Of a stretch of 64,000 bases of DNA, positions 2,530 to 60,285 are shown in pieces; positions within the stretch are counted from its first letter, which is position 1, and every line of letters starts with the position of its first letter. Both the position numbers and the translations under genes were made by a program. A model generated the notes under the pieces. It did not search any database, was not told the DNA's origin, and saw only the letters and a program-made list of their open reading frames with translations. The DNA is from Acidobacteriota bacterium (GTDB taxonomy: Bacteria > Acidobacteriota > Polarisedimenticolia > JACPZX01). Location: contig JACPZX010000067.1 of the NCBI GenBank assembly GCA_016195325.1, positions 15,559 through 79,558 of the forward strand. The letters run 5' to 3'.

Positions 2530-2530
2530 G

Positions 2531-5774: not shown

Positions 5775-5917
5775 CTCGATCGACGGGCGACGCGCCAACC
5801 TCGAACCCTCCCCTGGGGCGCGGAAAGCGGGCACCTTACACGAACCGCGGAGGATTCCTCAACCGACCCCGCCGGGTGTTAGTCTGCGGCCATGACGCTC
5901 GCGAGGACCGCCGGTCC

Positions 5918-6565: not shown

Positions 6566-6577
6566 CGCGGCGGACGT

Positions 6578-12418: not shown

Positions 12419-12482
12419 CCGTCTCCGTGCGGCCCTGAGGGCTCGGGCCTCAAGGTTCAATATACGGAAGGGCTTGGCCGCG

Positions 12483-13079
12483 TCAAGAAGCAGCGCCCAC
12501 CCGCGATGCGGCGAGCGACGCGAAGTGGCGGTGGACGCGGCCATCCGGCGTCATCTCGGGGTGGAAGGTGCCGGCCATCACGGCCCCGTGCTGGACCAGG
12601 ACCGGCTCACCGCCGTGGCGCGCGAGCACGTCGATTCCGGCCCCCACGCGGACGATTCGAGGCGCGCGGATGAAGACCATCGGGAGCGGGGCGTCGCCGA
12701 AGACCGCGGCGGGGGCTTCCGCCTCGAACGATTCCCTCTGGCGGCCGTAGGCGTTCCGCTCCACGTCGATATCGAGAAAACCCAGAGACGGCTGCTTCGG
12801 GCCGAAGACCTCCCTCGCGATCAGGATCGCCCCCGCGCACGTGCCGAAGATCGCCCCGCCGCGCGCGCGGAAGGCGCGGAGCGGCGGTTCCAGCCGGAGG
12901 TCCGCGATCAGGCGAAGCAGCGTCGTGCTCTCCCCTCCGGGGAGGATCAGCCCGTCGATCGCGTCGAGCTGCGCCGCGTAGCGGACCTCGATCGACTCGA
13001 TTCCCACGCGCGCGAGGGCGGCGACGTGCGCCGCGAAGTCCCCCTGGAGGGCGAGGACGCCTACCTTCGCCGTCACCAT
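12483..13079 (-). CDS. pdxT: pyridoxal 5'-phosphate synthase glutaminase subunit
   Basis: 198 aa. [10 protein letters not shown]...[10 protein letters not shown]...[10 protein letters not shown] are class-I glutamine amidotransferase motifs with a catalytic Cys. Confidence 0.9.
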
Positions 13080-15534: not shown

Positions 15535-15622
15535 CGCGTGACCCCCGCCCGCGCCCCCGTCGCCGGGTGGACGCAGGAATACCTCCATCCTACGGCAGGT
15601 CATGGCCAAGTCAAGGGAAATA

Positions 15623-21241: not shown

Positions 21242-22897
21242 TCAAGGAACGGCCGGTTCGGAGGGCGCGAGCCGCTGGACGGCCTCTCTCGACTCGACCG
21301 ACCCTGGCTCCAGGATCAGGGCCGCCTCGAAATTCCTGAGGGCGCCGGCACGATCCCCCTGCTCCTCACGAAGCCGGCCGGCGAAAACGCGCAGGGGGGC
21401 GAACTCCGGAAAGACGGCCACGCCCCGATCGAGCTCCGATGCGGCCCTCCCTCCCTCCCCTCGCGCGGCGTACGCCCGCGACGCGATGACGTAGTCCTGC
21501 GGCCGGACCAGATCGAGATCGGGATAGTTCGTCGCCGTGTTGAGCGCGAGGAGGGCGAGGACGAGGGCGCCGGCCGCGACGAGGCGGCGGGGGCGCCCCG
21601 ACGCCGCGTCCGCCAGCAGCCGATCGATCCCCAGCCCCGCGAAGACCAGCATGAGCGGAACGTACGGGATGCGGAAGCGCGCGATCACGTAGAACGCCAC
21701 CGTCCCGGCGATCCCCGCCGCGAGGAAGAGGTAGTGCGGCATGAAGCGGCGCCAGGATCCGAAGGACACCACCAGGCCGAGAGCCGCCAGGGGCGAGACC
21801 GCGTAGAAGGTCGGGAGGCCGGCCCGGAGGAGGGGCGAGTTGATCCGGAAGTAGGCGTACGACGCGTTGTTCGGCATCTCGAAGGGGGCGAGGAAGTACG
21901 CGAGCTTTCGGAACTGCAGGGCGATCAGCTCGGAGTAGCGCCCGCGCCACGTCGAGAGGACCGTGCCCATCGTGCCGGCGAGCCCGCCACCGGTCCTCGA
22001 GAGCACCTCGCGGGCGTAGCCGGTGACGCGCGCGTCGTCGCCGTCGAACCAGCCGATGCCGATGTGGTACGGGTTGTTGCCGTTGATGAACTCGATCGGC
22101 CCGCGCGTCGTCGTCCGCAGCGCGGGGGCGCCCACGGCGACGTTCCGGGCGATGGCGGGGGCGAGGGCCAGCAGGAATCCGCACGCGAGCGCGCCGACCG
22201 CGGGCGCGGGGCGCTTCAACTCGCGCGAGAGGAAGATCCACGCGGCCAGGCACGGGAGGAAGATCAGCACGTTCGGCTTCGTCAGGTAGATCGCTCCCGC
22301 CAGCGCACCGGCGATCCCCCAGCGCGCCGGGCCCCCCGCGCGGCGCGCCGCCTCGACCGCGATCAGGAAGACGACGGTGAGCGTGACGAGGAGGGTGTCC
22401 CTGAGAAGGAGCGACTCGTAGTAGAGAAACGGGCCGTAGATCGCCGCGAGCCCCCCCGCCAGGAGCGCCGCCCGCTCCGGGGCGAGGCGGCGCGCGAGCA
22501 GGTACACGCCGGCGGCGGTCACGGCCCCGAGAAGGAACTGGAGCAGGACGACGGAGAGGGGCTCGCGCGGCGCCAGCGCGTAGACGAGCGCCACGAAGTA
22601 GGGATAGAGGGGATCCTGGTGGAAGACCTTCGGACCGTACCAGCCGAGCCACGTCGCCTCCGGCGCGATCGCGCGCTGCCACGGGTGATACGGATGGAAG
22701 TCTTGGCGGCCGAGCCAGTCGCCGTCGACGATCCGCAGCGCCCAGCGGTGGAACGTGTCCATGTCGGAGATCGGATCGGCGTTGATCGCCAGGCACCCGG
22801 TGTCGGCGATGGCCGCCCCATACCCGAGGCGCACGACGATCGCCAGAGTGAAGACGAGGAGCGCCCGCGCGCGCGGGGAGGCGAGAGTCGAGGCCAA
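21242..22897 (-). CDS. PMT/GT39-like polytopic membrane protein with C-terminal TPR, paralog 3
   Basis: Putative TTG start gives MASTLASPRARALLVFTLAIVV. There are about 11 TM helices. The C-terminus has a TPR-like ALRNFEAALILEPGS segment. Confidence 0.55.
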   Translation of the reverse strand: MASTLASPRARALLVFTLAIVVRLGYGAAIADTGCLAINADPISDMDTFHRWALRIVDGDWLGRQDFHPYHPWQRAIAPEATWLGWYGPKVFHQDPLYPYFVALVYALAPREPLSVVLLQFLLGAVTAAGVYLLARRLAPERAALLAGGLAAIYGPFLYYESLLLRDTLLVTLTVVFLIAVEAARRAGGPARWGIAGALAGAIYLTKPNVLIFLPCLAAWIFLSRELKRPAPAVGALACGFLLALAPAIARNVAVGAPALRTTTRGPIEFINGNNPYHIGIGWFDGDDARVTGYAREVLSRTGGGLAGTMGTVLSTWRGRYSELIALQFRKLAYFLAPFEMPNNASYAYFRINSPLLRAGLPTFYAVSPLAALGLVVSFGSWRRFMPHYLFLAAGIAGTVAFYVIARFRIPYVPLMLVFAGLGIDRLLADAASGRPRRLVAAGALVLALLALNTATNYPDLDLVRPQDYVIASRAYAARGEGGRAASELDRGVAVFPEFAPLRVFAGRLREEQGDRAGALRNFEAALILEPGSVESREAVQRLAPSEPAVP

Positions 22898-22908
22898 CGC
22901 GGAGGGCC

Positions 22909-23847
22909 TCAGGGCCCCTTGATCTCGATGTGGCGGATGGAGATCGCCTTGCGCGGGCGGAAGGTGGCGGCGCCGCCGACGCCGTCGACCTCGAGGGCGC
23001 TCAGGGCGTCGAGCACCTCCTGGCCGGCGCGGACGTACGCGAAGAAGGTGTGAAGCCCCTTGTACGCCGGCTGGACGTCGAGGAGGATGAAGAACATCGT
23101 CGCGCTCGTCAGCGTGGTCTCGCGGCGCACCGCCCCGACCAGCCCCCGCCCCGGCCGGATCGACTCGTCGATTTCGGGGGCGAGCTGGTTCTGCCACCCG
23201 CCGTTCCCCGTCCCGGTCGCATCGCCGGTGTCGGCCTCGACGCCGGGCATCACGCGGTAGAACGGCAGCCCGTCGTAGAAACCGCCGCGCGCCAGGTCCA
23301 CGAAGTTCCTGACGTGAACGGGCGCCTGCTCCGGCATGAGGACCATCTCGAGCGTCCCGAGATCGGTCGTCACGACGGCGATCCGATCCCGCTCCCTGTC
23401 GTACGGTGGGGCGATGAAGAAGTCGTAGTGCGACGTCTCCCACTCGCCGCACGTCCAGGCGATGCGAAACCTTCCCGCTTTCCGGATCTTCGCCCGCCGG
23501 CTGACCTCGAGATCGAAACGGCGCTCGGTCCGCGGGGGGAGCATCAGGGCCTTCCCGTCGCCGATCGCTCCCGAGTAGCGCACGGCCTTTCCCTCGCCGA
23601 CCGGGAGGATCGACACGGCGCTCCCCTCGAAGCACGCCTCGGGGACCGTCACCGCGACGTTCGAGGGGTTCTTCAGCGTGAGCTGCATCACGATCCCCTC
23701 GTCGAGATCGTAGGTGAGGCGCGCCACGAGGATCGTCGGCTCGACGCGCGCGATCGCCCCGACGTCCACCGCGCCCTGATCCGCCGCGGCCGGGACCGCC
23801 GCGAGCAGGGCCGCGCACGCCGCGACGGCCGCAAGAGCGCGCGTCAC
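22909..23847 (-). CDS. secreted cyclophilin-type peptidyl-prolyl isomerase with N-terminal extra domain
   Basis: GTG start, signal peptide VTRALAAVAACAALLAAVPAAA. The C-terminal half (HVRNFVDLARGGFYDGLPFYRVMPG...) is a cyclophilin fold. Confidence 0.75.
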   Translation of the reverse strand: MTRALAAVAACAALLAAVPAAADQGAVDVGAIARVEPTILVARLTYDLDEGIVMQLTLKNPSNVAVTVPEACFEGSAVSILPVGEGKAVRYSGAIGDGKALMLPPRTERRFDLEVSRRAKIRKAGRFRIAWTCGEWETSHYDFFIAPPYDRERDRIAVVTTDLGTLEMVLMPEQAPVHVRNFVDLARGGFYDGLPFYRVMPGVEADTGDATGTGNGGWQNQLAPEIDESIRPGRGLVGAVRRETTLTSATMFFILLDVQPAYKGLHTFFAYVRAGQEVLDALSALEVDGVGGAATFRPRKAISIRHIEIKGP

Positions 23848-26830: not shown

Positions 26831-27601
26831 CTACCTCCACCTGCGGGATTCGACGGCCCGCTGCGTCAGGAACAGGTTGAATGCGATGAAGGAGAGGAAG
26901 AAGACGACGTTCTTCGTGTCGACGACCCCCTTGGAGAACTCCTCCGTGTTCTCCGTGAGCGAGATCGCCTTGAACAGGGTCTCCACCTTCCCTCCCGCCA
27001 TCTGCCCGGCGAAGCCGATCACCCAGAGCACGAGGAGAAGGACGAAGCAGGTCACCGCCGCGACGATCTGGTTCTCGGTGAGCGACGACATGAAGAGCCC
27101 GACCGAGAGGAACGCCCCGGCGAGAAGGCATGCGCCCCCGAACGCCGACAGGAACGACCCCAGCGGCGGAGCCGAGCCCGAGATCCAGAGGAAGAGCGGG
27201 TACTGGACCGTCAGGAGCATGATGACGATCAGGAACGACAGCGCCCCGAGGAACTTCCCGAGCACCAGCTCCGACGTCTTCACGGGCGCGGTGAGGAGGA
27301 GCTCCGCGGTCCCCTGCTTCTTCTCCTCCGCGAGGAGCCGCATCGACACGAGCGGCACGATGAAGAGGAGGATGACGTGGAAGTTCGAGTACAGCGGCCG
27401 GATGAGCGCGTCGTGGAGGTTGAGCTGCTCCGCCATGTAGGGGTTCATCCCCGCCTGGAGGGTGTACTGCGAGTACGAGCGCACGAAGAGATCGAAGAAG
27501 AGCCCGGTCACGGCGAGGAAGAAGCCGATGACGACGTAGGCGAGCGGTGAGACGAAGTACGCGTACAGCTCGCGCCGCGCGATGGCGAAGGTGGTCCTCA
27601 C
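26831..27601 (-). CDS. ABC-2 type permease (GldF-like)
   Basis: 256 aa with 6 TM helices. ELYAYFVSPLAYVVIGFFL is an ABC-2 family N-terminus. Confidence 0.8.
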   Translation of the reverse strand: MRTTFAIARRELYAYFVSPLAYVVIGFFLAVTGLFFDLFVRSYSQYTLQAGMNPYMAEQLNLHDALIRPLYSNFHVILLFIVPLVSMRLLAEEKKQGTAELLLTAPVKTSELVLGKFLGALSFLIVIMLLTVQYPLFLWISGSAPPLGSFLSAFGGACLLAGAFLSVGLFMSSLTENQIVAAVTCFVLLLVLWVIGFAGQMAGGKVETLFKAISLTENTEEFSKGVVDTKNVVFFLSFIAFNLFLTQRAVESRRWR

Positions 27602-28620
27602 AGGGCACCTCCCTGAGCCGCCGCCAGCGTCTCCCCGGGTGTCCCGACCGGCGCGGCCGGTCGCCCGTTCGAGGGCTCGCCTCTCTCCGCGGCCGGCGCG
27701 ATCCGCCGCGTCGCCTCGAGGTAGATCTCCTCGAGCGTCCGCGTCACCTGCGTCATCTCGACCAGCCCCCAGCCGCCGCGGACCGTCGCGCGCGCGATCT
27801 CCTCGCGCACCGCGTCGCCGGCCCGCGCCTCGACGAGGTAGCCGCCCGGGTCGCCGAGAGGCGCCACCGACGCGACCCCCTCGATCTGGCGGAGCGCCGC
27901 CGACACAGTCTCGCCGTCGCGCGCGACGCGGACGCGGAGCCTCTCGGCCCCGGACCCCGCCCCGGCGAGCCCCTCGAGGCTCCCCTCCTGCACGATCTCA
28001 CCGTAAGAGATGATGGCGACGCGCGAGCAGGTGACCGTGACCTCCGGGAGGATGTGCGTCGAGAGGATGATGGTCCGCTCGCCGCCGAGCGACTTGATGA
28101 GGTTCCGGATCTCGATGATCTGCTCCGGGTCGAGGCCGACCGTCGGCTCGTCGAGGATCAGCACCGGGGGATCGTGGAGGATCGCCTGCGCGAGGCCGAC
28201 GCGCTGCCGGAATCCTTTCGACAGGTTTCCGATCACGCGTGAGGCGACGTGGGCGAGGCCGCACCGCTCGATCGCGCCCGAGACTTTCTGCCGGACCTGC
28301 GACGAGGGGACCTTTCGAATCCTCGCGACGAACTCGAGGTAGGCCCTGACGGACATCTCGGGATACACCGGGGGGTTCTCGGGAAGGTAGCCGATGCGCC
28401 GCTTCACCTCCATCGGGCTCTCAAAGACATCGAATCCGCCGATCGTCGCCGACCCCTCGTCGGGAGGCATGTAGCACGTCAGGATGCGCATCGTGGTGGT
28501 CTTGCCCGCGCCGTTGGGCCCGAGGAAGCCGAGGATCTCTCCCTTCCCGACGTTGAAAGTGACCTTCCTGATGGCGGGCCGCCCGCCGAACGACTTGGTC
28601 AATCCATGCACTTCAATCAC
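27598..28620 (-). CDS. ABC transporter ATP-binding protein (GldA-like)
   Basis: Walker A is GPNGAGKTT, signature is LSKGFRQR, Walker B is ILDEPTVGLD. GTG start is preceded by GGAGGGAG. Confidence 0.9.
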   Translation of the reverse strand: MIEVHGLTKSFGGRPAIRKVTFNVGKGEILGFLGPNGAGKTTTMRILTCYMPPDEGSATIGGFDVFESPMEVKRRIGYLPENPPVYPEMSVRAYLEFVARIRKVPSSQVRQKVSGAIERCGLAHVASRVIGNLSKGFRQRVGLAQAILHDPPVLILDEPTVGLDPEQIIEIRNLIKSLGGERTIILSTHILPEVTVTCSRVAIISYGEIVQEGSLEGLAGAGSGAERLRVRVARDGETVSAALRQIEGVASVAPLGDPGGYLVEARAGDAVREEIARATVRGGWGLVEMTQVTRTLEEIYLEATRRIAPAAERGEPSNGRPAAPVGTPGETLAAAQGGAL

Positions 28621-28759: not shown

Positions 28760-29040
28760 GGAGGGATCGCGGCGCGGTGCTGGCCCATGTCGCCGCGGAG
28801 GAGACGGCCTGCGCGCGTGAGGTAATCGCGCTCGGCCTCGGCTTTGCTCGGCCACCCACTCCGGCGGCGCCGGAGCGTTTGATGACAGGAGGCGCCAAGC
28901 GCCTGCGCGGGTACCCTTCGGCCGCAGACCGCAGCGGCCGAATCTCGCGGGCAGCCGCTCGCCGGCTCGCGGCGCTCGTGGCCTCGTCCCAGACGCTCCT
29001 CCGTGGCGACATGGGCCAACACCGCGGCCTCGTTGTTGGT

Positions 29041-29433
29041 TCAGGTGCGTGCGCGCACGGGTCGGGGATCGACGACGCTGTCGATCGAGGCGCCGGCGAC
29101 GCGGGCCGTCGGCGGCGACCGATGGAGCCCCGGGCGCAGGGAGAAGGCGAGGGCGTCGATCGACTCGGGGGCGAGCCACTCGTTGAGGCGACTCAAGATG
29201 ACGGCGCGGAGGTGCTCGAGCTCGCGGAGCCAGACGGCGCTGCCCACGTCGACGATCAGGCACCCGCGCGCGAGCTTCGACGGGCGCGAAACCGCCCCGA
29301 GCGTCGGGCCGACGGCCCGGGACCACGCGCCGACGATCGCCAATCGGCGCATCGGTCCACCCGCTCGGGCGGTGCCGGCGAGTCGGCCGACTTCCTCGAG
29401 ACTGAGGAAGTCATGGGCCTTCCTCCTCCCCAC
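29041..29433 (-). CDS. DUF721-domain protein
   Basis: 130 aa. The pattern L..VG..LA..SRP..L..G.L.V.V.S..W..EL......IL.RLN (AIVGAWSRAVGPTLGAVSRPSKLARGCLIVDVGSAVWLRELEHLRAVILSRLN) matches the DUF721 consensus. Confidence 0.45.
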   Translation of the reverse strand: MGRRKAHDFLSLEEVGRLAGTARAGGPMRRLAIVGAWSRAVGPTLGAVSRPSKLARGCLIVDVGSAVWLRELEHLRAVILSRLNEWLAPESIDALAFSLRPGLHRSPPTARVAGASIDSVVDPRPVRART

Positions 29434-49496: not shown

Positions 49497-50293
49497 CACG
49501 CGCCGATCCCGATCATCCGGAGGATGATCGCGATTAAGCCGATGATGGACAGGTAGGCCGAGAGCCTGCCGCGCCACCTGCCGGCGAAGACGCGGTCGTA
49601 GATGACGACGGCGAAGAGAACCCACGCGAGGAGAGCCCACCGCTCGCGCGCGACCCACGAGAAATCCCCATGGGTGTAGCGGTTCGTGAGCGCGCCCGTG
49701 AAGACGACGAGGGTCAGGAAGGCGAAGCCCCATCCGAGCGACATGTAGCTGAGCCGATCGCACCGCTCGAGGCTCGGGAGCGCCCCGAAGAACCGCCCCG
49801 GCCTGTGGTTCTTGAGCCCCTTCTCCTGGATGAGGTAGACGATGCTCGTGCCGAACGTGAGGAAGAGGAAAGCGACGCCGAGAACCGCCGGCACGACGTG
49901 CACCGCGCGCAGCGACACCTTCCACCCCTCGGTCACGCGCGACGGCTCGTCGGGGATCAGCGTCGTGATCGCCATCAGCGCGACGACGACCGGCAGGATG
50001 ATGATGCCGAGGAACTCGATGCGGAACTTGAAGTGCGCGAGGAGGTAGACGGAGATCGCGGCGAAGGCGACGAGGAAGAGGATCTCCTTCAGCGTGAGAT
50101 CGGGAACCCCCCCCTCCTCGAGCGTCCGCGCGACGAGCCCGCCGAAGTGGAGGACGAGCCCGGGGATCGCGAGGCGCGGGAGCCACGGGACCATCTCGCG
50201 GCGGGCCGACAGGAGGACCCAGACCGAGAGGACCATCGCGACGGCGTAGAGAACGCCGGCGCCCAGGAAGAACCAGCCGCTGGCGTGGAGCAT
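49496..50293 (-). CDS. hemX: cytochrome c assembly (CcsA-like) membrane protein, HemX-type
   Basis: 265 aa with 8 TM helices. The W-rich motif GWGFAFLTLVVFTGALTNRYTHGDFSW resembles CcsA/ResC. Its position immediately upstream of hemA matches the hemAXCD arrangement. Confidence 0.65.
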   Translation of the reverse strand: MLHASGWFFLGAGVLYAVAMVLSVWVLLSARREMVPWLPRLAIPGLVLHFGGLVARTLEEGGVPDLTLKEILFLVAFAAISVYLLAHFKFRIEFLGIIILPVVVALMAITTLIPDEPSRVTEGWKVSLRAVHVVPAVLGVAFLFLTFGTSIVYLIQEKGLKNHRPGRFFGALPSLERCDRLSYMSLGWGFAFLTLVVFTGALTNRYTHGDFSWVARERWALLAWVLFAVVIYDRVFAGRWRGRLSAYLSIIGLIAIILRMIGIGA

Positions 50294-50489
50294 GTTTCCT
50301 CGCGGGTTTCGACGGTGGACGGGGTCCGGCGAAGACTATCACCGTGGACATTGCCTGTTCCATGCCACGCGGAGACGCGCCCCTTCCGGGCGGCGGCGGG
50401 CGTCGGATCGAGGCAAGCTGCGTCATCTCGCGCACCGCCGGGAGTCCTCCGCGCCTGATCCGCCGCCGCGCGTTACAATCGCCCTCCTC

Positions 50490-52334
50490 ATGAAGCGCCG
50501 CCGCCAGCCCGCCGGGAAAGTCGAGACGCCCGAGATCGTCATCGAGCCGCCGCGCGCGCGCGGCGATCTCCTGGCTCTCGCGATGGCGGTCCCCCTCGTC
50601 GTCCCCTTCCTCCAGCCGGGATGGTTCTTCGGCCACAACAACATGCACCTGATCCGGCTCTTCGAGCAGGACGTCATGATCCGGGCCGGCCAGTTCCCGG
50701 TCCGGTGGTACCCCGACGTCGCCGCCGGGTACGGATCGCCGCACCCGCAGTTCTACGCCCCGCTCTTCTACTGGGTCGCGCAGATCTTCCTCTTCGCCGG
50801 CCTCTCGCTCGCGGGCGCCCTCAAGGCGGCGGTGGCCGCGGTGGTCCTCGCCACCTCGTGGACGACCTACCGGTGGGCGCGCGCCTGGTTCGGCGAGCCG
50901 GCGGCGCTCGTCGCGGCGGCGGCGCTCGACTACGCGCCGTATCACATGCTCGATCTGTTCGTCCGGACGGCTTTCTCGGAGCTGATGGTCTTCATCTTCC
51001 TGCCGCTCACCTTTCTCATGTTCCACCGGCTCGCGGAGCGGACCACGCCCGGGCGTGTCGCGGCGGCGGCCGTCGCTCTCTCGGGGCTCTGCCTCTCGCA
51101 CACCGTCACGACGATGCTGGTCCCGCCTCTCGTCGGCGGCTGCATCGTCCTCGAGGCCTGGGCGCGGGGCTGGAATCGGCGGGTCTGGCTCGGCTCGGCG
51201 GCCGCCCTGGTCGGCGGCGTGCTCCTCGCGGCCTTCTTCCTCGTGCCGCTCGTCGCCGAGAAGGGGGCGATCGACACCGACATCTACGCCGCGGGGTACT
51301 TCGACTACCACAAGCACTTCGCCGCGCCGGGGCAGCTCATCCACTCGCCGTGGGGGTTCGGCCTCAGCCGCGAAGGGGACGACGACGGCGTGTCGTTCCG
51401 GCTCGGCGTTCTCCAGATCGCCGGCGCCGCCCTCTTCCTCTGGCGCCGCCCCTGGCGCTCCGCCTCGCGCGCGGCCCGCGCCGCGATGATCCTGGCGGGC
51501 GGGATCGCGGCCGCGGGGATCGTGATGGCCCTCCCGATCTCCTCGCCGGTGTGGGCGCTCGTCGGCCCGCTGCGCTACGCGCAGTTCCCGTGGCGGTTCC
51601 TGATGCTCTCCGCGATGGGCCTCGCCTTCCTCGGCGGCGCCGCGGTGGACGGAGCCGCGCCCCCCGAGGATTCTCCCGGTCCCGGCGCCGCGCGGCGGCG
51701 CCCCGCGAGCGCGGCCGGGACCGGCATCCCCCTCTGGGGAGCGGGAGTCTTGGCCACCGTGATCCTGGTCTCGAGCTTCGGGATGTTCGGGTTCCGCGAG
51801 CGGATCGCGCTCGATCGCATCGGCTTCGGCGGAGACCACACGGACATGCGGGAGCGCGGCGCCGCGGACGCGACCGCGTCACCGACGGTCTTCACCCGCG
51901 AGTTCGTGCGCGCGGAGACGCTCCACTGGTTCGATCATCTCCCGCCCGGCGGCTACCCCTACCCGCCAAGGGAGGATCTGAGGCGGCCGCGCGCGGAGAT
52001 CGATCGGGGGAAGGCGCGGATCGAGATGATCGAGTCGGGCCCCGTCACGTACCGGATGCGCCTCCAGGCGGACGCTCCGTCTCTCCTGCGGCTCAACGTC
52101 TACCGTTTCCCCGGATGGTCGTGGACGCTCGACGGCGCCGAGGCCGCGGCCGCGACGTTCCCCTCGAAGCGCCCCATCCTGGCGCTCGAGATCCCCGCGG
52201 GGGAGCACGAGGCGGTCGCGAACTACCGGAAGAGCGTTCCCCGCCTGATCGGCGACGTCACGAGCCTCGTCGCGCTCGCGATCGTCGCGGCGCTGGCGCT
52301 CGCGGGCGTCAGATCCCGGCGACCCAGCCCGTGA
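50490..52334 (+). CDS. large polytopic membrane protein, putative glycosyltransferase (YfhO/GT39-like), paralog 4
   Basis: About 614 aa from MKRRRQPAG with 12 or more TM segments. The periplasmic loop reads GHNNMHLIRLFEQDVMIRAGQFPVRWYPDVAAGYGSPHPQFYAPLFY. The C-terminal soluble domain ends with a TM anchor. Confidence 0.5.
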   Translation: MKRRRQPAGKVETPEIVIEPPRARGDLLALAMAVPLVVPFLQPGWFFGHNNMHLIRLFEQDVMIRAGQFPVRWYPDVAAGYGSPHPQFYAPLFYWVAQIFLFAGLSLAGALKAAVAAVVLATSWTTYRWARAWFGEPAALVAAAALDYAPYHMLDLFVRTAFSELMVFIFLPLTFLMFHRLAERTTPGRVAAAAVALSGLCLSHTVTTMLVPPLVGGCIVLEAWARGWNRRVWLGSAAALVGGVLLAAFFLVPLVAEKGAIDTDIYAAGYFDYHKHFAAPGQLIHSPWGFGLSREGDDDGVSFRLGVLQIAGAALFLWRRPWRSASRAARAAMILAGGIAAAGIVMALPISSPVWALVGPLRYAQFPWRFLMLSAMGLAFLGGAAVDGAAPPEDSPGPGAARRRPASAAGTGIPLWGAGVLATVILVSSFGMFGFRERIALDRIGFGGDHTDMRERGAADATASPTVFTREFVRAETLHWFDHLPPGGYPYPPREDLRRPRAEIDRGKARIEMIESGPVTYRMRLQADAPSLLRLNVYRFPGWSWTLDGAEAAAATFPSKRPILALEIPAGEHEAVANYRKSVPRLIGDVTSLVALAIVAALALAGVRSRRPSP

Positions 52335-54210
52335 TCTGGGTCCGCGGAAAGGCGATCTCGGCGGGCGGCCAGGTCCCGTTGTTGAGCCGCTGATCGAAGT
52401 AGATGTCGGGGGAATCCGCCCCCGCGGTGTTCTGCACCACGGCGCTCCCCGCGATCACGCTCCCGTAATGACGGCCCGTCCCCTCCGCCACGACGTTTCC
52501 CGCGTTGAAGAGCACGCCGAAGAGGCTCACCTGCCCCGTGATGGGGATCCCCTGCGCATCGCGTCCCGTGGTCGTTGCGGACGAGTACACCTCGAGATCG
52601 GGGCTCGTCGCGGTGGCCGACTGCGCCGCGAGCGCGCTCTTCACGAGCGAGCTTCCGGGAGCGCCGGCAACGACGGTCGTCGGGTAGGAGAGGTTCACGA
52701 AGGCCTCTCCTGCGTCCCACGCGCCGTTGCCGTTCGCGTCGTCGAAGGGCTCGCCGGGCGGAATCATCACCCGGTTCACCCCCACCACGTTGTTCACCCG
52801 CATCGACTCGGCGTTGACGTAGAGGAGCCCCGAGAAATTCCAGTCGACGTTCTCGATGACGATTGGCGGCGTCAGGTTCGTCTGCGGGTCGCCGGGGCCG
52901 TGGCCGTTCGGTGCCAGGCCGTCGCGCGTGTCGAAGAAGAAGAGCCCTTCCTGGTTGTGCGTCCAGTCGTACAGGCTCCTCGCCGCGCCCACCCCCCACT
53001 CGCGGAAGAGGCCGCTCGCGGCGTCGTAGGTGAAGTACCGCGCCGTCTCGTCCCCCGAGCTCGCCGCCGATTTCATCACGTCGTAACGGAACGGCGCGCA
53101 CGCGACCCCCGCCTGGCGCTGAAAGATGTTCGAGTGGTCGCTGTCGATCGGCGACGCCTGCGAGAAGGGGTACGGCTGCGCGTTCGTCGATCCCGCGCCG
53201 GAGAGATCGCCGGCGGCGGTCACCTCCAGCCACGGGTCCTCGACGGTCGTGTCGGGGTTCGCGGACCAGACGTTGAAATCGTCGCCCGGCGCGTTACCGC
53301 TGAGGCGGCGCGCCGCGCTCTTGAAGGGAAATGCGCTTGGCACTTTCAGGTCGAGGTTCGGCGCGAGCGCGACGTTCCCCGAGACGATCACCCTTCCCCA
53401 GTGGGCGTTCAGGGCTCCGGTCACGGAGAGCGGGCCGCACGACTCGAGCGGGCCGCTCGCGAGCGTCCCGGGCACTTCACCGAGGACCGCCTTGACCGTG
53501 CGCTCGCCCACCTTCAGCGACGACGCGGTCACCACCGGCACGACACCGATGAGTCCCATCCCGCGGTACTTGGCCACCGTGATCTTGATCGTGCAGACGC
53601 CGGCGCGCTTCATGACGCCCCCCACGGGGATCATCGGCGGGGCGAAGATCGCGATCTGGGAGATGCGCCCGGTGCGGCTCTGATCGGTGAAGAGCGCCTG
53701 GTTGATCTTGTCGAGGAAGTCGACGGCGCCGACCGTGTCCGCGATGAGGATGTCGGGGCCCGACTCGCTGCCGCGGAACTCGGTCGTCGCATCGCCCCGA
53801 TACGGCTTGTGGAAGATGTCCATGAACGCGGAGGGGGACCAGAGCGTCCTCCCCTGACGGTAGAAGGGCTTCGTGGCGGTGCCGTCCGCGAGGACGGGGG
53901 GGGTGTTCGGGTCGCCGTCATGGTCGAAGACGCGCTTCGTGCGATCGAAGAGGGCCGGGTTCCTGAGATCGTAGGTCCCGAGGAACTTGTGCAGGACCTG
54001 CGTGGAGATCGAGGGATTCCCCGTCACGGGCTGATCGAACCAGGCCTTCACCATCCGCACGCCGGTGTCGGCCGTGTGCACGAGCTGCTCGCTGTCCCGG
54101 CCCGACGCCGCGATCATCATCTCGGTGTCCGCCATCGAGAGAAACGCGAGCCCGAGTAACGTCAACGTCGCCGAGATGAGAACGGTGACGATGAGTGCCG
54201 ATCCTCGCAT
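52309..54210 (-). CDS. PilX_N-domain large pilus-associated protein (putative tip adhesin / minor pilin-like)
   Basis: Starts MRGSALIVTVLISATLTLLGLAFLSMADTE, the PilX N-terminal hydrophobic segment. The rest is a 600-aa G/N/D/T-rich beta-type domain. Strong SD (GGAGGAG) upstream. Confidence 0.65.
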   Translation of the reverse strand: MRGSALIVTVLISATLTLLGLAFLSMADTEMMIAASGRDSEQLVHTADTGVRMVKAWFDQPVTGNPSISTQVLHKFLGTYDLRNPALFDRTKRVFDHDGDPNTPPVLADGTATKPFYRQGRTLWSPSAFMDIFHKPYRGDATTEFRGSESGPDILIADTVGAVDFLDKINQALFTDQSRTGRISQIAIFAPPMIPVGGVMKRAGVCTIKITVAKYRGMGLIGVVPVVTASSLKVGERTVKAVLGEVPGTLASGPLESCGPLSVTGALNAHWGRVIVSGNVALAPNLDLKVPSAFPFKSAARRLSGNAPGDDFNVWSANPDTTVEDPWLEVTAAGDLSGAGSTNAQPYPFSQASPIDSDHSNIFQRQAGVACAPFRYDVMKSAASSGDETARYFTYDAASGLFREWGVGAARSLYDWTHNQEGLFFFDTRDGLAPNGHGPGDPQTNLTPPIVIENVDWNFSGLLYVNAESMRVNNVVGVNRVMIPPGEPFDDANGNGAWDAGEAFVNLSYPTTVVAGAPGSSLVKSALAAQSATATSPDLEVYSSATTTGRDAQGIPITGQVSLFGVLFNAGNVVAEGTGRHYGSVIAGSAVVQNTAGADSPDIYFDQRLNNGTWPPAEIAFPRTQITGWVAGI

Positions 54211-54358
54211 GATCTCCTCCTGACCCCGACGCATTCCGTGAGCTCCGTCCTGCGGCCCCGCGATGCCGGGCAACCCGGATTCAGCAACGGGGGTGCCACG
54301 TGGCTGACGGTCCGCCCTTGTCCCTCGCCTGCCGCGTCTGATCCCGTCCATCCGCGCG

Positions 54359-54838
54359 CTACTTTCCCGGCCCGGCCGCCTGCACCGCCGGGATACCGGC
54401 CGCTATCTCTTCCGACAACGACTGGAGCGATCCCGAACCCGCGGCCGCGCGAAGCCGGCTGATCACCGAGGACGACATCCGGCGGATCTCGCGGATCTGC
54501 ACGTCCACGCGCCGCATCTCGAGCTCGGTCGCGTACCCGAGCTCGGCGCAAAGGAAGAGATGTGTTTCCAATTCGGAGAGCGCCCCCTGCGCCAGGTAGA
54601 GCCCCCGGAGGAACTCCTTTCCCGAGGCCCTCGACTGGCCGCGCGCGATGTACGAAGGGATTGACAGCGCCGCGATCCTCATTTGCGCGTTCAGGCTGAT
54701 CCCCAGCCCCTGCGGGATCTTGTCGGCGATCTTGAAGATCGCGACGGCGAGCTCGAACGACTTCTCCCAGACGCGCAGATTGCGGTACCCCGAGGGGTCT
54801 TCCGGCGGATCGGTTTTGCCATTCATCTCCGAGCTCAT
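54359..54838 (-). CDS. four-helix-bundle protein (23S rRNA intervening-sequence protein family; Avd-like)
   Basis: 159 aa. YRNLRVWEKSFELAVAIFKIADKIPQG...LNAQMRIAALSIPSYIARGQSR matches TIGR02436/PF05635. GC content and codon use (AAA, GAA, TTT, ATA) are lower than in the flanks. Confidence 0.7.
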   Translation of the reverse strand: MSSEMNGKTDPPEDPSGYRNLRVWEKSFELAVAIFKIADKIPQGLGISLNAQMRIAALSIPSYIARGQSRASGKEFLRGLYLAQGALSELETHLFLCAELGYATELEMRRVDVQIREIRRMSSSVISRLRAAAGSGSLQSLSEEIAAGIPAVQAAGPGK

Positions 54839-54891
54839 GTCGTGCCTCCTGAGTGGGCTCTAGCCATCAGCTGCGTTTGACATATGCAATC

Positions 54892-55545
54892 TCACTGCCG
54901 CCACAAATGCTGAATCCGATCAAACGACCATACGCGAAGGCGTCCCGACCGCCCGAACACCACGACGGCCCGCAGCTCGCTCGCACGTCCCGTCAGATAG
55001 ATCGCCCCGGAGCTCGACTCCCCTGTCGGCGAGAACGAGACGATGTCGCTCCCGCCAAACTGCACCGGATCGTCCCCCGCTTGGAGCACGCCGTGGCTCG
55101 GCGGCACCTTCGGGATCGCTCCCGGGCCCGGGATCGCGAGCCTCACGTCGTCGTTGCCGGCGCGCAGATCGATCGGGCCACGAAGGAGCGCGTCGACTCC
55201 CGACGCGATCTCCGCCGACCTGATCCCCGTCTGGCCGCCGTCGAGGTACACCGCGAAGCGATCGCCCGCCGGCGCGGTCTCGAAGGCGACGCCGACGTAC
55301 CGATGCCGCGCGATCGCCTCCTGGCGCGCCCGCGCCAGCTCGCCCGAGATCGTCGCGGCGGCCGCGTCGACCGACCTCTTGCCGACGAACCCCGAGAGCG
55401 AAGGGATCGCGATCGCGACGAGAAGGGCCGCGATGGCGAGAGCCACGATCGTCTCGACGAGCGTGGCTCCCGCGCCCCGGCGGCTACTTCTTCTGCGGCT
55501 TCGCGGCCGTGAGATATTCGCGAAGGTGCGAGAGTGACTTCTCAC
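54892..55545 (-). CDS. type IV pilin-like pseudopilin (GspH/FimT family)
   Basis: Prepilin N-terminal segment RRGAG|ATLVETIVALAIAALLVAIAIP with Glu at +5. The C-terminus is a GspH-like beta domain. The GTG start gives an unusually long 26-aa leader that overlaps comEA by 62 nt, so the start is uncertain. Confidence 0.55.
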   Translation of the reverse strand: MRSHSRTFANISRPRSRRRSSRRGAGATLVETIVALAIAALLVAIAIPSLSGFVGKRSVDAAAATISGELARARQEAIARHRYVGVAFETAPAGDRFAVYLDGGQTGIRSAEIASGVDALLRGPIDLRAGNDDVRLAIPGPGAIPKVPPSHGVLQAGDDPVQFGGSDIVSFSPTGESSSGAIYLTGRASELRAVVVFGRSGRLRVWSFDRIQHLWRQ

Positions 55546-55822
55546 CGATCCCCTGCACTTTGAGCAGATCGTCCACGGTCGCGTAGGGCCCGTTCTTGTC
55601 CCTGAACTCGACGATGCGCTTCGAGAGGGAGGGGCCGATTCCCGGGACCTTCTCGAGGTCGGGGGCCGACGCCGAGTTGACGTCGACCGGATCGACCTTG
55701 TCCTTCACCGCCGCTCCGGCCGGTGCCGAGCTCGCGGCCGATGCGAGGCTTCCCGGCGCGCCGAGGACGACGACGCCGATTGCGAGCGCCGCGGCGCTCC
55801 GGATCCACAGACTTCTCACCAT
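55484..55822 (-). CDS. comEA: ComEA-like helix-hairpin-helix DNA-binding competence protein
   Basis: 112 aa with a signal/TM segment. DVNSASAPDLEKVPGIGPSLSKRIVEFRDKNGPYATVDDLLKVQGIGEKSL is a tandem HhH. Confidence 0.8.
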   Translation of the reverse strand: MVRSLWIRSAAALAIGVVVLGAPGSLASAASSAPAGAAVKDKVDPVDVNSASAPDLEKVPGIGPSLSKRIVEFRDKNGPYATVDDLLKVQGIGEKSLSHLREYLTAAKPQKK

Positions 55823-55932
55823 GACGTGCTCCTCCGGGCGGAGGCGTCGCGCCTCCGCGGATAATGCGCGGGCCGGGCCTCCGCGACGGATGTCGGGAGG
55901 GGACCCGCGCCGACTAAGAGAGGGAAAGAGGT

Positions 55933-55954
55933 GGGGGGGCCTTTCGGCCCCCCC
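55933..55954 (-). terminator. GC-rich hairpin (8-bp stem, TTTC loop) followed on minus strand by T-rich tract; candidate intrinsic terminator
   Basis: The hairpin is gggggggcc-tttc-ggccccccc. On the minus strand it is followed by ACCTCTTTCCCTCTCTT. It lies about 80 nt downstream of the minus-strand ORF ending at 56036. Confidence 0.35.
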
Positions 55955-56035
55955 GGGGGGGTGCATCGAGGGAGGACCATGAGGAGAGCTGGCCTTGGGA
56001 GGGCATCCCTTGATCACCCGATACGGTCGCGCGCC

Positions 56036-56398
56036 TCAGCCCGAGGGCTCCGGCCGGAAATACCTCCCCTGGCTCCGTCGCCGCGCGTCGCGGAGCAGGT
56101 CGAGGATCTTCCGGAGCAGGCTGACGCTGTCGCCGCAGATGTGCAGAAAGCCCGTGGCCTCGTCGCGAAGGTAAAAGGTGGTGACGGAGGAGAAGATGTA
56201 GATCCGGCCCCCGATATCGACCTTCCCGCGCTCCCCTGCCGAAGCCCGCAAGATCATCAGGGTCGCCGGATCCACCCGCCCTTCTCCTCCGCCGACGAAC
56301 CTTCTCGTCGTTTCACCACCCATCTCGTCATTCTCCTTGGGGCCGTCGTGCCGCCGCCCGCCGCTCGACTTGACGTCCGTCTTCACGGGGGAGTACAA
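56036..56398 (-). CDS. hypothetical small protein
   Basis: 120 aa (or about 95 aa from the internal Met). It contains GKVDIGGRIYIFSSVTTFYLRDEATGFLHICGDSVSLLRKILDLL and has no confident family match. It is followed by a terminator-like hairpin. Confidence 0.35.
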   Translation of the reverse strand: MYSPVKTDVKSSGGRRHDGPKENDEMGGETTRRFVGGGEGRVDPATLMILRASAGERGKVDIGGRIYIFSSVTTFYLRDEATGFLHICGDSVSLLRKILDLLRDARRRSQGRYFRPEPSG

Positions 56399-56595
56399 AG
56401 CAACGGCGGTGCCAGTCGCGGACTTCCATTGGGAATGATTGAGAGAAGGGCGGCAACGCCCATGGGCGGCGCGACTTGGAGAGTGGCCGCGGAGCGGCGC
56501 GGGGACACGAAGAGCGCCGCCGGGGCACCGGCAGCCGGTCGCCGGCGGACACGCGCGTGGAACGCGTGTCGCGCCGCGTTACGGAGTCCGGGGGA

Positions 56596-57736: not shown

Positions 57737-59032
57737 TCACTGGATGAAGTTCTTGTACACGTCGAGAGAGATGACCGTGCCCATCAGGAGCAGCAGGAGC
57801 ACCAGGCCGACCTGCATCACGCGCTCCTTCACCATGGTGCTCAGGTTCCGGCGCATCACCCCCTCGAGCCCGAGGATGAAGATGTGCCCCCCGTCGAGAA
57901 TCGGGATGGGCAGCAGGTTGATGACGCCGAGCTGCAGGCTGATGATCGCCATGAACTGGAAATACGCGATCACGCCCCCCTTCCACGCCTCTCCGGTGAA
58001 CTTGTAGATGTCGATGGGCCCCGAGAGCGTCCTCGGCGAGAGCTGTCCGGTGAAGAGCTTGCGGAGCGTCGCGAAGAGAACGCCGGCCGAGCGCCAGTTC
58101 AACTTCACGCTCTCGCCCACAGCCTGGGCCGGACCGAACTTCTTGAGCACGGATTCGGGGACGAGCGCGAGCCCGGGATCGCTCCGGCCGCCGTCGAGCC
58201 CCTTCGGCACGACCGACTTCACGACATCCTCCGCCCCCCGTCGGACGACGATGGCGACCGGCGCCCCGTGGTTCTCGAAGAGCGCCTTCGAGACCGCCTC
58301 GAGGTGCGATCCCACGTCGAGCCCCGCCACCGTGACGACCAGGTCACCCTCCAGGAGGCCCGCGTGCGCCGCGGGGCCGACGGGATCGACGGAGGCGAGC
58401 TTCACTCCCGAGAAGTACGGCTGAACCCCGACGCGCCCCATCGCCTCCCGCTCGGTCTCGCCGATCGTGACCGTGAGCGTCGTCTCGGCCCCGCCGCGCA
58501 TCACGCGGATGGGCAGCCGCTTGCCGGGGTTGAGCGCCACGGCGAGCTGGAGATCGTTCCACGTGCGCGTCTCGCGGTCCCCCACGGAGAGAACGCGATC
58601 CATGACCTCGAGTCCGCCCTTCTCCGCCGGCGACCCCTTCTCGACCGCGCCGACGACGGGAGGGTCCTCGATGTACTTCGCGACCGGGACGCCGTGCATG
58701 TAGATGCCCGCGATGATGGCGACGGCGAGGACGATGTTGAGCGAGGCCCCCATCACGAGCACGGCGAATCGCTCGAGCCGCGACCGGCTCTGGAACTCCT
58801 CGGGGCTCCCCTGCAGCTCGTCGTCCGGATTCTCCCCCATCATCTTGACGTAGCCGCCGAGGGGGAGCGCCGAGATCCGGTAGTCGGTGTGGCCCCGGCG
58901 GCGGCCGAAGAGCCGCGGGCCGAAGCCCAGCGAGAAGACCTCGAAGCGGATGCCGACGAGCTTGGCGACGACGAAGTGCCCGAACTCATGGATGAAGATA
59001 AGCACGCCGAGGATGAAGACCGTGGCGAGCAT
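57737..59032 (-). CDS. rseP: RIP zinc metalloprotease RseP (site-2 protease, M50)
   Basis: MLATVFILGVLIFIHEFGHF contains the HExxH in TM1. There is a PDZ domain and the LDG motif NLLPIPILDGGH. Confidence 0.9.
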   Translation of the reverse strand: MLATVFILGVLIFIHEFGHFVVAKLVGIRFEVFSLGFGPRLFGRRRGHTDYRISALPLGGYVKMMGENPDDELQGSPEEFQSRSRLERFAVLVMGASLNIVLAVAIIAGIYMHGVPVAKYIEDPPVVGAVEKGSPAEKGGLEVMDRVLSVGDRETRTWNDLQLAVALNPGKRLPIRVMRGGAETTLTVTIGETEREAMGRVGVQPYFSGVKLASVDPVGPAAHAGLLEGDLVVTVAGLDVGSHLEAVSKALFENHGAPVAIVVRRGAEDVVKSVVPKGLDGGRSDPGLALVPESVLKKFGPAQAVGESVKLNWRSAGVLFATLRKLFTGQLSPRTLSGPIDIYKFTGEAWKGGVIAYFQFMAIISLQLGVINLLPIPILDGGHIFILGLEGVMRRNLSTMVKERVMQVGLVLLLLLMGTVISLDVYKNFIQ

Positions 59033-59055
59033 GTTGGTGATGCTGAATGTCAGGC

Positions 59056-60285
59056 TCACGAATGCACGCTCCTGCCGGCGCCCCGGCCGCGGAGGACCGC
59101 CGCCGACGCCGCCTCCCGGGCCCACGCGTCGGCTCGCACGACGGTGGCGAGGTCCCTCGCCTCCTCGACGCGGTGCCGGTCCATGGCCCCCTCGATAATC
59201 GCGGGAATATCGAGGAAGCCCAGCCGCGTGTCAAGAAAAGCCTGCACGGCGATCTCGTTCGCGGCGTTGAGAACGGCGGGCATCGTGCCGCCCGACTCCA
59301 GGGCGCGGTACCCCAGGTCGAGACAGCGGAACGTCCCCCTGTCCGGCATCGCGAAGGTCAGCGGCCCCAGCGTCCTCAGGTCGAGGCCCTGGATCGGCGA
59401 GACCCACCGGTCGGGCCACGTCAGCGCGTACTGAATCGGGTGCCGCATGTCCGTGCGGGACATCTGGCTGATGATCGCGCCGTCCGCGTACTCCACCATC
59501 GAGTGGACGATCGACTGAGGGTGGACGACGACCTCGATCCGATCGAGCGGCACGCCGAACAGATGGTGGGCCTCGATCACCTCGAGCCCCTTGTTCATCA
59601 GCGTCGCCGAGTCGATGGAGATCTTCCTCCCCATCTGCCACGTGGGGTGCTTGAGCGCCTGCTCCGGGGTCACGTCGGCGAGATCCCTCGCGCTCTTCCC
59701 GAGGAAAGGCCCCCCCGACGCCGTCAGGATCAGCCGCGCGACTTCCGGCGCCGCGCCGGCGCGGAGACACTGGTGCAGGGCGTTGTGCTCCGAGTCGACC
59801 GGAAGAAGCGTCGCGCCGCTCCTCGCCGCCATCGAGATCATGACCGGGCCGGCGACGACAAGGGCCTCCTTGTTGGCGAGCGCGACCACGCGCCCCGCTC
59901 GGACGGCCTCGAACGTCGGAGCGAGCCCGGCGGCGCCGACGATTCCGGCGACGACCACCTCGACGTCCGCGTGCGCCGCACACCTCACCGCCCCGTCCTC
60001 GCCGTGGACCACCTGCGTCGCGCCGCGCCCCCAGGCGCTCGCCGCGGCAGTCCCCCACTGCGCCGGGTCTCCGAGAGCCGCGCGGAGCCTAGCCGCCGAC
60101 TCCGCCGTCGCGACGGAGGCGAGCGCGGGCCGGAACCGCTTCACCTGTTCCGCCAGCCGATCGACGTTTCCCCCCGCCGCGAGGGTGACGACGCGGAAGC
60201 TCCCGGGAAACCGCTCGATCAGATCGAGCGTGCTCACGCCGATGGAGCCCGTCGAGCCGAGAAGCGCGATGTTCCTGGGTGTCAT
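59056..60285 (-). CDS. dxr: 1-deoxy-D-xylulose 5-phosphate reductoisomerase
   Basis: IALLGSTGSIGVSTLDL (NADPH fold)...LANKEALV...LPVDSEHNAL...ASGGPF is a full-length Dxr. Confidence 0.95.
   Translation of the reverse strand: MTPRNIALLGSTGSIGVSTLDLIERFPGSFRVVTLAAGGNVDRLAEQVKRFRPALASVATAESAARLRAALGDPAQWGTAAASAWGRGATQVVHGEDGAVRCAAHADVEVVVAGIVGAAGLAPTFEAVRAGRVVALANKEALVVAGPVMISMAARSGATLLPVDSEHNALHQCLRAGAAPEVARLILTASGGPFLGKSARDLADVTPEQALKHPTWQMGRKISIDSATLMNKGLEVIEAHHLFGVPLDRIEVVVHPQSIVHSMVEYADGAIISQMSRTDMRHPIQYALTWPDRWVSPIQGLDLRTLGPLTFAMPDRGTFRCLDLGYRALESGGTMPAVLNAANEIAVQAFLDTRLGFLDIPAIIEGAMDRHRVEEARDLATVVRADAWAREAASAAVLRGRGAGRSVHS

Follow-up and report, generated by a model that had tools for sequence, protein, structure and literature searches.

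Organization of the locus

The subject of this study is a small cluster of genes with pilus and DNA-uptake signatures, located in a 64,000-nucleotide stretch of DNA (the window) from a bacterium of the phylum Acidobacteriota (class Polarisedimenticolia; GenBank assembly GCA_016195325.1, contig JACPZX010000067.1, forward-strand positions 15,559 to 79,558). The window has a GC content of about 70%, and 44 genes were called in it with a crude gene caller. The cluster, referred to here as the islet, comprises five minus-strand genes between rseP (57737-59125) and a convergent glycosyltransferase gene (50292-52334). Their order is orf95, a ComEA-like gene, a gene for a FimT-like prepilin, a gene for a small four-helix-bundle (4HB) protein, and a gene for a pilin of 633 amino acids (aa). 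A preliminary description of this DNA had listed ComEA, the pseudopilin, the 4HB gene and the 633-aa protein as consecutive on the minus strand, and all of them are present in the claimed order. To these are added here orf95, three sigma-54-type promoters, and an overlap of 62 nucleotides (nt) between the ComEA and FimT-like genes.

The four-helix-bundle protein

The 4HB gene (54359-54838, minus strand) encodes a predicted cytoplasmic protein of 159 aa, which matches without difference an NCBI sequence from an uncultured Acidobacteria metagenome-assembled genome (MAG). Its assignment to the 23S-IVS/Avd family is confirmed by scores above the curated thresholds for both PF05635 (88.8 bits against 33.8) and TIGR02436 (84.2 bits against 24). 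Additionally, a profile built from the 4HB proteins of related loci (type B, defined below) matched XCC0516 (2GSC) at an E-value of 1.5e-20 when compared with the PDB. The protein thus belongs to the same Pfam and TIGRFAM families as Avd and the XCC0516-type bundles (4DWL, 2GSC), but it differs from them in several respects. The family motif SIPSNIAEG is replaced by SIPSYIARG, and an additional C-terminal helix (SLQALSEEIA), which is conserved, lies in the 37-residue tail that follows the Pfam domain. Moreover, the gene is linked to a prepilin gene and, in some lineages, fused to it.

Avd proteins serve as accessory factors of diversity-generating retroelements (DGRs), and a role of this kind had been considered for the islet, with the pilin genes at 52309-54210 and 54892-55545 as possible targets. 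The window bears out no such role. A repeat finder and a sensitive blastn comparison of both pilin genes with the window revealed no template or variable repeats (TR, VR), only short GC-rich matches of 65-85% identity. No combination of reverse transcriptase (RT) motifs was present in the six-frame translations, and a Pfam search of 27 window proteins yielded no RVT domain. Hence, unlike the Avd of a DGR, the 4HB protein has no RT, TR or VR nearby. The possibility that the gene sits inside a 23S rRNA intervening sequence was rejected as well, since it is flanked by protein-coding genes and the window contains neither rRNA nor any other Rfam family; Rfam and tRNA scans of the whole 64 kb were empty.

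The preliminary description had also regarded the GC content and codon usage of the 4HB gene as visibly lower than those of its flanks. As regards total GC, this is correct: at 0.654, compared with 0.701 for the average gene of the window (z -1.66), the 4HB gene ranks third from the bottom among the 44 genes. As regards codon usage, the claim could not be upheld. The GC content at third codon positions (GC3) is 0.869 (z -0.85), which is higher than that of the FimT-like gene (0.839) and of ComEA (0.809). Codon usage was corrected for gene length by resampling codons given each protein sequence; the resulting bias scores (zB) were 3.4 for the FimT-like gene, 2.8 for the 633-aa gene and 2.7 for the 4HB gene, and the corresponding zGC3 values were -2.0 for the 4HB gene and -3.2 for the FimT-like gene. 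Furthermore, 4HB orthologues match the composition of each host genome. Because the deviation in GC3 and codon usage is no greater than in the neighbouring genes and the orthologues follow their hosts, composition gives no sign of a foreign 4HB gene. It is the islet as a whole that is mildly atypical, not the 4HB gene alone.

Conservation of the module

A scan of genome contigs with the 633-aa protein returned one species representative (the contig of locus L001), and the wider survey was therefore based on metagenomes, in which a profile of the 633-aa family picked up 79 loci that were then surveyed with hidden Markov models. Contigs carrying 4HB homologues at 72-83% identity share the gene order of the window, namely truA, uppS, cdsA, dxr, rseP, a 364-aa gene, orf95, ComEA, pilin, 4HB, the 633-aa gene, glycosyltransferase, ccsA and hemA. 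Two arrangements can be distinguished among the loci. Type A, which accounts for most of them and has a pilin identity of about 40% or less, is a canonical cassette that encodes, in this order, a GspH-like protein, two prepilins (of about 165 aa and of 900-1060 aa) and a PilX_N protein; in annotated examples its neighbour is a sigma-54 activator, a histidine kinase or a prepilin peptidase. Type B, represented by the islet, consists of orf95, ComEA, the FimT-like prepilin, the 4HB protein and the PilX_N protein, the two pilins in the middle being absent. As a reduced paralogue of type A, it has shed those two pilins and acquired ComEA and the 4HB gene. Both types occur in one MAG (GCA_036505635.1), on different contigs (L010 for the type A cassette, which is complete, and L100 for the type B module), so that type B is an additional pilin set and not a replacement of type A.

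In every type B locus whose pilin identity is 56% or higher (L001-5, L009, L014-18, L029), the 4HB gene immediately precedes the pilin gene, and divergent copies are found in L019 and L027. Down to a pilin identity of about 42%, every relative recovered has the gene in this place, L023 being the one loss. In a neighbour-joining tree, type B pilins group together, and the groups (L019, L023) and (L019, L023, L027) each receive 100% support. As L023, which lacks the 4HB gene, is nested among L019 and L027, which bear it, the gene is ancestral to the module and was lost once. Identities to the window co-vary from gene to gene across the locus, with the 4HB gene being the best conserved in the close clade. 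For instance, L001 shows 78% for 4HB, 65% for the pilin and 60% for rseP, while 4HB and pilin stand at 54% and 56% in L016 and at 43% and 49% in the protein P0109 described below. The dN/dS ratio of the 4HB gene is about 0.16-0.25, similar to that of the pilin gene, and by this measure the gene is under purifying selection. The suggestion that it was horizontally inserted or mobile is contradicted by its conserved position, its co-divergence with the flanks, purifying selection and host-like composition; conservation at the same place in relatives, with the single exception of L023, is what had been named beforehand as the finding that would speak against it.

The module can also be compared with known pilin sets. 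Its FimT-like and 633-aa proteins match proteins D and A, respectively, of the Verru_Chthon cassette (TIGR02596-TIGR02600), far under the family cut-offs (E 2.9e-8 for the FimT-like prepilin against protein D; E 2e-4 for the N-terminus of the 633-aa protein against protein A). The type A relatives share the four-gene H/I/J/K order with the canonical GspH-I-J-K and FimU-PilVWX sets. In contrast to these sets, the islet keeps the H-like and K-like members and adds ComEA, orf95 and the 4HB gene.

Some variants of these genes were met elsewhere in the survey. Five loci (L065, L066, L072, L074, L082) contain two complete tandem type A cassettes (at about 2000-7900 and 10100-13000), with a PilX_N protein of the same family as the last member of each, and L012 has three PilX_N paralogues in a single locus. 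Distant 4HB relatives were found in unrelated contexts (P0020, P0022) or on a short contig without a pilin gene (P0019). A Verrucomicrobiae-labelled MAG (L093 5070-6200, L095 1195-2325) carries tandem SIPSYIARG-type 4HB genes of 161 and 162 aa, near a NACHT-domain gene and far from any pilin gene.

Fusions of the 4HB protein with the pilin

In some sister lineages the two neighbouring genes are joined. At L019, the 4HB frame continues without a stop codon into the MRGSAL start of the pilin, and the same in-frame junction is present in P0046, a protein of 749 aa that represents a cluster of ten members on three contigs. An exhaustive search with the 4HB part of P0046 uncovered a further fusion protein, P0109 (764 aa), on three contigs including one of GCA_036505635.1. 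It passes both Pfam thresholds, with PF05635 at 46.5 bits (residues 20-123) and PilX_N at 30.2 bits (residues 147-194), and its 4HB part is 43% identical to the 4HB protein of the window (E 1e-27). The 4HB parts of P0046 and P0109 are only 34% identical to each other, and the two fusions belong to different sub-branches, among which L027, with its split and overlapping genes, is interspersed.

The two junctions differ in what they permit. That of P0109 (APGVPAQGG/SALVMAIL, the slash marking the cleavage site here and below) has no in-frame start codon before the transmembrane helix, and this pilin must therefore be made with the 4HB part attached. At the P0046 junction the ATG is kept, so its pilin could still be made separately. 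The C-terminus of the window 4HB protein (AAGIPAVQAAG) resembles the linker of P0109 (APGVPAQGG), a resemblance between short sequences that is suggestive only. Since the leaders of type IV prepilins face the cytoplasm, a fused 4HB part would be a pro-domain located in the cytoplasm and preceding the site cut by the peptidase. In the window clade, the unfused tip pilins begin with a leader of just three residues (MRG/SAL), far shorter than is typical of prepilins; MRG also precedes the cleavage site at the P0046 fusion junction.

Sigma-54-type promoters

Exact matches to TGGCAC-N5-TTGCW occur twice in the 64 kb, where 0.00 are expected, and both lie on the minus strand in the islet. The first, P1 (TGGCACCGCCGTTGCT, 56399-56414, minus strand), stands in front of orf95, ComEA and the FimT-like gene. 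L001 and L003 keep it ahead of their orf95 orthologues, and L027, in which no orf95 was detected, has it ahead of ComEA; it is perfect in the fusion-bearing L099 and L100, and weaker forms are present in L016, L019 and L023. The second exact match, P3 (TGGCACCCCCGTTGCT, 54283-54298, minus strand), is located 73 nt upstream of the 633-aa gene and is kept in L001, L003, L014, L015, L017 and L029 within an otherwise variable spacer. Between them lies P2 (CGGCAGTGAGATTGCA, 54885-54900, minus strand), a sigma-54-like sequence (CGGCAG-N5-TTGCA) that overlaps the stop codon of the FimT-like gene and is 47 nt upstream of the 4HB ATG. Its non-coding TTGCATA is kept in an alignment of L001, L003, L015 and L017 while the spacer varies, and the scan also finds the site in L014 and L029. 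More distant type B loci retain P1 alone, which is consistent with a single operon there. From these motifs the module is predicted to be sigma-54-controlled. A scan of the islet for sigma-70 promoters and terminators gave nothing above chance, and the window contains no rpoN gene and no gene for a bacterial enhancer-binding protein.

ComEA, orf95 and the FimT-like prepilin

The first gene behind P1 in type B modules is orf95 (56036-56323, minus strand), which lies upstream of ComEA and encodes a 95-aa cytoplasmic protein with an ATG start and an AAGGAG ribosome-binding site. Its 31 homologues are nearly all exactly 95 aa long and share an invariant core (DPATLMILRA.AGE.GKV). An AlphaFold2 (AF2) model suggests an alpha-beta4-alpha fold at a modest predicted local distance difference test (pLDDT) score of 73. 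Searches with orf95 gave no Pfam or NCBIfam match and no structural neighbour in the PDB.

The ComEA-like gene (55484-55822, minus strand) encodes a protein of 112 aa, predicted to be periplasmic and DNA-binding, whose start was confirmed by translation. A hydrophobic N-terminal signal peptide can be read in the sequence, followed by HHH_3 (82.2 bits against 27, E 2.9e-23); TIGR00426 is also passed (55.6 bits against 53.1), and the full-length ComEA model TIGR01259 stays under its cut-off (67.5 bits against 152). As had been noted, ComEA is immediately upstream of the pseudopilin gene. The coupling is even tighter than adjacency: the sole available start of the FimT-like gene, the GTG at 55545, lies 62 nt inside ComEA. 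Across the survey, ComEA is found in type B loci wherever the region upstream of the FimT-like gene is available, and it is absent from type A cassettes.

The FimT-like gene (54892-55545, minus strand) encodes a prepilin of the GspH/FimT type, as initially recognized, with PF12019 at 30.9 bits against a threshold of 21. The N_methyl score is slightly under its cut-off (19.1 bits against 21.2), and the cleavage motif RRGAG/ATLVE is present. The C-terminal region (GRSGRLRVW) contains the motif GRLR. All nine type B orthologues have a GR[ILM]R motif, which is absent from all 16 GspH-like paralogues of type A. GRxR is a conserved DNA-binding signature of FimT (PMC8897410). As in FimT of Legionella pneumophila and other Gammaproteobacteria (PMC8897410), the fold is assigned to the GspH/FimT family, the N-terminus is that of a prepilin, the x of the C-terminal GRxR is hydrophobic, and the gene often stands apart from the core minor-pilin operon. 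However, the islet protein comes from a different phylum, about 13 further residues follow the motif, and its gene is linked to ComEA and a ComZ-like pilin gene, a linkage not reported for FimT. When it was compared with PDB sequences, solely the generic N-terminal pilin helix aligned; no similarity to the solved FimT and FimU structures was detectable beyond that helix.

The ComZ-like candidate tip pilin

The 633-aa gene (52309-54210, minus strand) starts at 54210 behind an AGGAGG site, downstream of P3. The preliminary description had given its product a PilX_N anchor. In the window copy itself PF14341 (PilX_N) remains under threshold (12.2 bits against 25.5, E 0.19), so the anchor is not established there directly. 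Homologues at 33-49% identity, from a family of 53, do carry PF14341 (e.g., P0109 with 30.2 bits), and the protein is by transitivity a divergent PilX_N member. An AF2 model (pLDDT 86, predicted TM-score (pTM) 0.83) shows an N-terminal helix of the PilX_N/GspK type (residues 4-59; cleavage motif MRG/SALIV) and a strand-rich remainder, predicted to form a pilin-like sheet and a large beta-solenoid.

In a Foldseek search of this model against the PDB, the three top matches were all chains of ComZ (6QVI), with an E-value of 3.6e-7 and a probability of 0.96, followed by beta-solenoids of ice-binding proteins at non-significant E-values; a structure search of BFVD gave no match. ComZ of Thermus is a DNA-binding competence pilin with a GspK-like domain and a solenoid resembling ice-binding proteins, and its proposed place is the pilus tip, which it would share with a partner pilin (PMC6561018). 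The islet protein resembles the Thermus thermophilus ComZ-PilA2 system (6QVI; PMC6561018) in being a large candidate tip-type pilin with a putative GspK-like domain and a predicted solenoid, and in being encoded next to a small partner of the pseudopilin type. The ice-binding proteins as second-tier structural matches also recall what the authors of the ComZ study reported (PMC6561018). There are differences, too. The partner here is GspH/FimT-like, whereas Thermus PilA2 is GspI-like, and the Thermus locus is a full comZ-pilA1-4 cluster, unlike the reduced set of the islet. To our knowledge, the Thermus cluster has neither ComEA nor a 4HB gene. The idea of a DNA-uptake islet with a tip-adhesin candidate, put forward in the preliminary description, is thus supported and sharpened by the ComZ match of the model, the GRxR motif and the ComEA overlap.

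Interpretation and rival explanations

We consider it probable that the islet is a vertically inherited, sigma-54-controlled accessory pilus-tip module in which the 4HB protein is a dedicated cytoplasmic partner of the ComZ-like prepilin, and is neither an Avd nor a recent insertion. Gene identities, synteny, co-divergence, promoter motifs, fusions and fold similarity, which were all observed, form the basis of this interpretation. The 4HB protein is most likely a dedicated cytoplasmic partner or a pro-domain of the tip pilin, and we infer both its physical contact with the pilin and the mechanism. In the proposed mechanism, the ComZ-like pilin would cap a type IV pilus, with the GRxR-bearing FimT-like pilin beneath it. 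The two pilins would jointly bind extracellular DNA, and pilus retraction would then bring the DNA to periplasmic ComEA, the I/J-type pilins and the pilus machinery presumably being supplied from elsewhere in the genome. Where the 4HB part is fused, its place would be at the cytoplasmic face of the membrane, ahead of the prepilin cleavage site, and the prepilin peptidase would release it. The separate 4HB protein of the window may act in trans on the prepilin N-terminus, which it could hold, target or gate at the assembly platform, or it could report the processing of that N-terminus. A more specific proposal is that an Avd-family 4HB was recruited as the partner of a competence tip pilin, as a folded N-terminal domain of about 125-145 residues replacing the short leader in some lineages, where the prepilin peptidase presumably releases it, and as a separate, sigma-54-co-regulated protein in the window; we offer it tentatively, at somewhat less than an even chance.

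A functional analogy may be drawn with FliS, the dedicated four-helix-bundle export chaperone for flagellin. The window protein would likewise be a small cytoplasmic helical bundle, encoded beside a filament subunit and co-regulated with it. However, FliS binds the C-terminal segment of a type III substrate, whereas the link here is to the N-terminus of a prepilin inserted by Sec/SRP, and homology is not claimed. The partnership of a 4HB protein with a pilin, including its natural fusions, appears to be new.

Several points weigh against the interpretation given above. All the relatives are metagenomic assemblies (MAGs). Among type B loci, L023 is the only one without a 4HB gene, its two pilin genes being 44 nt apart, and close relatives of the 4HB protein, at 48-61% identity, are encoded in surroundings unrelated to pilins, in one case as a tandem pair, so that the 4HB subfamily is not pilus-specific. 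A literature search found no paper connecting PF05635 with pili. P2 has two mismatches to the consensus and, taken alone, is at chance level. Type IV pilus machinery genes are missing from the 64-kb window, as are comEC and dprA. The ComZ match of the model has global TM-scores of 0.15-0.17 and 10% identity, and a sequence-profile search of the 633-aa protein against PDB chains gave no match; in view of these low scores and the lack of a sequence-level link, the protein is termed ComZ-like and not a member of the ComZ family. Finally, the GRxR motif is located 13-16 residues before the C-terminus and not at the very end, and this four-residue motif is partly found in FimU proteins that do not bind DNA (PMC8897410).

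Three other explanations can be weighed against these data. The 4HB gene could be a recently acquired or mobile element, possibly the Avd of a DGR that diversifies the pilin or adhesin genes. This would agree with PF05635 being the Avd family, with the third-lowest total GC, with relatives of the subfamily that are scattered over unrelated contexts and also occur as tandem copies, and with the canonical type A cassette having no 4HB gene. It is nonetheless extremely improbable, as the gene holds its position down to about 42% pilin identity and co-diverges with its flanks under purifying selection, its GC3 and codon usage are no more deviant than those of the FimT-like gene or ComEA with a composition that follows the host, near-repeats of the pilin genes and an RT are both absent from the window, and the gene is preceded by a conserved promoter of its own and, in sister lineages, is joined to the pilin gene. 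The 4HB gene may instead be an ancient passenger, that is, an old PF05635 insertion kept for a function unrelated to the pilus (e.g., generic nucleic-acid binding), with the fusions being incidental read-throughs. The fusions themselves make this quite unlikely, since there are two diverged ones on different sub-branches and P0109 has no usable internal start; moreover, a single position has been kept over deep divergence together with co-regulating sigma-54 signals, and within the close clade the 4HB gene ranks with the best conserved genes of its locus. A passenger would nevertheless fit with a family that is multi-copy and promiscuous in its contexts and whose non-DGR members have neither an established function nor a pilus link in the literature, with the loss of the gene from L023 while the module was kept, and with the ATG retained at the P0046 junction.

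The remaining alternative concerns the module as a whole, which might serve adhesion, the binding of extracellular DNA in biofilms, or secretion, and not uptake for transformation, given that a ComEA-like protein and a GRxR motif are not diagnostic. We regard it as unlikely. The best structural match is specifically a competence pilin, ComZ, the ComEA and FimT-like genes are tightly coupled through their overlap, ComEA goes with type B and not with type A, and GRxR is confined to the ComEA-linked paralogue. Arguments for such a role are the sub-threshold score for the full-length ComEA model, the absence of comEC, dprA and pilus machinery genes from the window, and the fact that tip proteins with beta-solenoids are commonly adhesins. 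Moreover, we know of no demonstration of competence in Acidobacteriota.

Significance

PF05635 genes outside retroelements are abundant across bacterial genomes, and ever since the family came to light in the intervening sequences of 23S rRNA they have had no assigned function. A partnership with one specific pilin that is conserved and co-regulated and has repeatedly taken the form of a fusion provides a concrete and testable function for one PF05635 subfamily. If the proposed role is correct, the 4HB protein would represent a new class of type IV pilus accessory factor, and thousands of non-DGR PF05635 genes would gain their first functional context. A prepilin with a folded cytoplasmic domain before its cleavage site would, furthermore, be an unusual means of controlling the entry of a tip subunit into the fibre. 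Acidobacteriota are abundant soil bacteria, and the sigma-54 module with its ComEA, FimT-like and ComZ-like proteins offers a specific candidate for the DNA receptor of natural transformation in this phylum.

Neighbouring genes and other features of the window

The glycosyltransferase gene that borders the islet (50292-52334, plus strand; start uncertain) converges on the 633-aa pilin gene with an overlap of 26 nt and encodes a GT-C-like membrane protein (PTPS_related/PMT_2). Its own Pfam matches are weak (23 bits, under the cut-off), and its orthologues carry PF10131. The gene accompanies type B modules in L019, L023, L027 and L097, where the orthologue lies upstream of the orf95 position on the same strand, and not in L099 and L100. 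The enzyme may be a pilin-modifying component of the module. In two fusion-bearing loci (L097 8271-10439; L099 7298-9421, minus strand), a subtilase (Peptidase_S8) of 707-722 aa with FG-GAP repeats is encoded convergently, directly after the 4HB-pilin fusion gene, which is the place of the glycosyltransferase gene in the window.

The sole other pilus-related signal in the window is a 473-aa protein (11123-12544, minus strand) with an MshEN domain, which binds cyclic di-GMP; a T2SSE ATPase domain was undetected in it. A second large membrane glycosyltransferase of the PMT_2 type (858 aa; 21242-23818, minus strand) is encoded 30 kb from the islet. By far the best inverted repeat of the window (28773-28803 and 28996-29026), with arms of 31 nt that are 94% complementary and 192 nt apart, sits between an ABC-transporter ATPase gene (27598-28620) and a small open reading frame (29041-29433).

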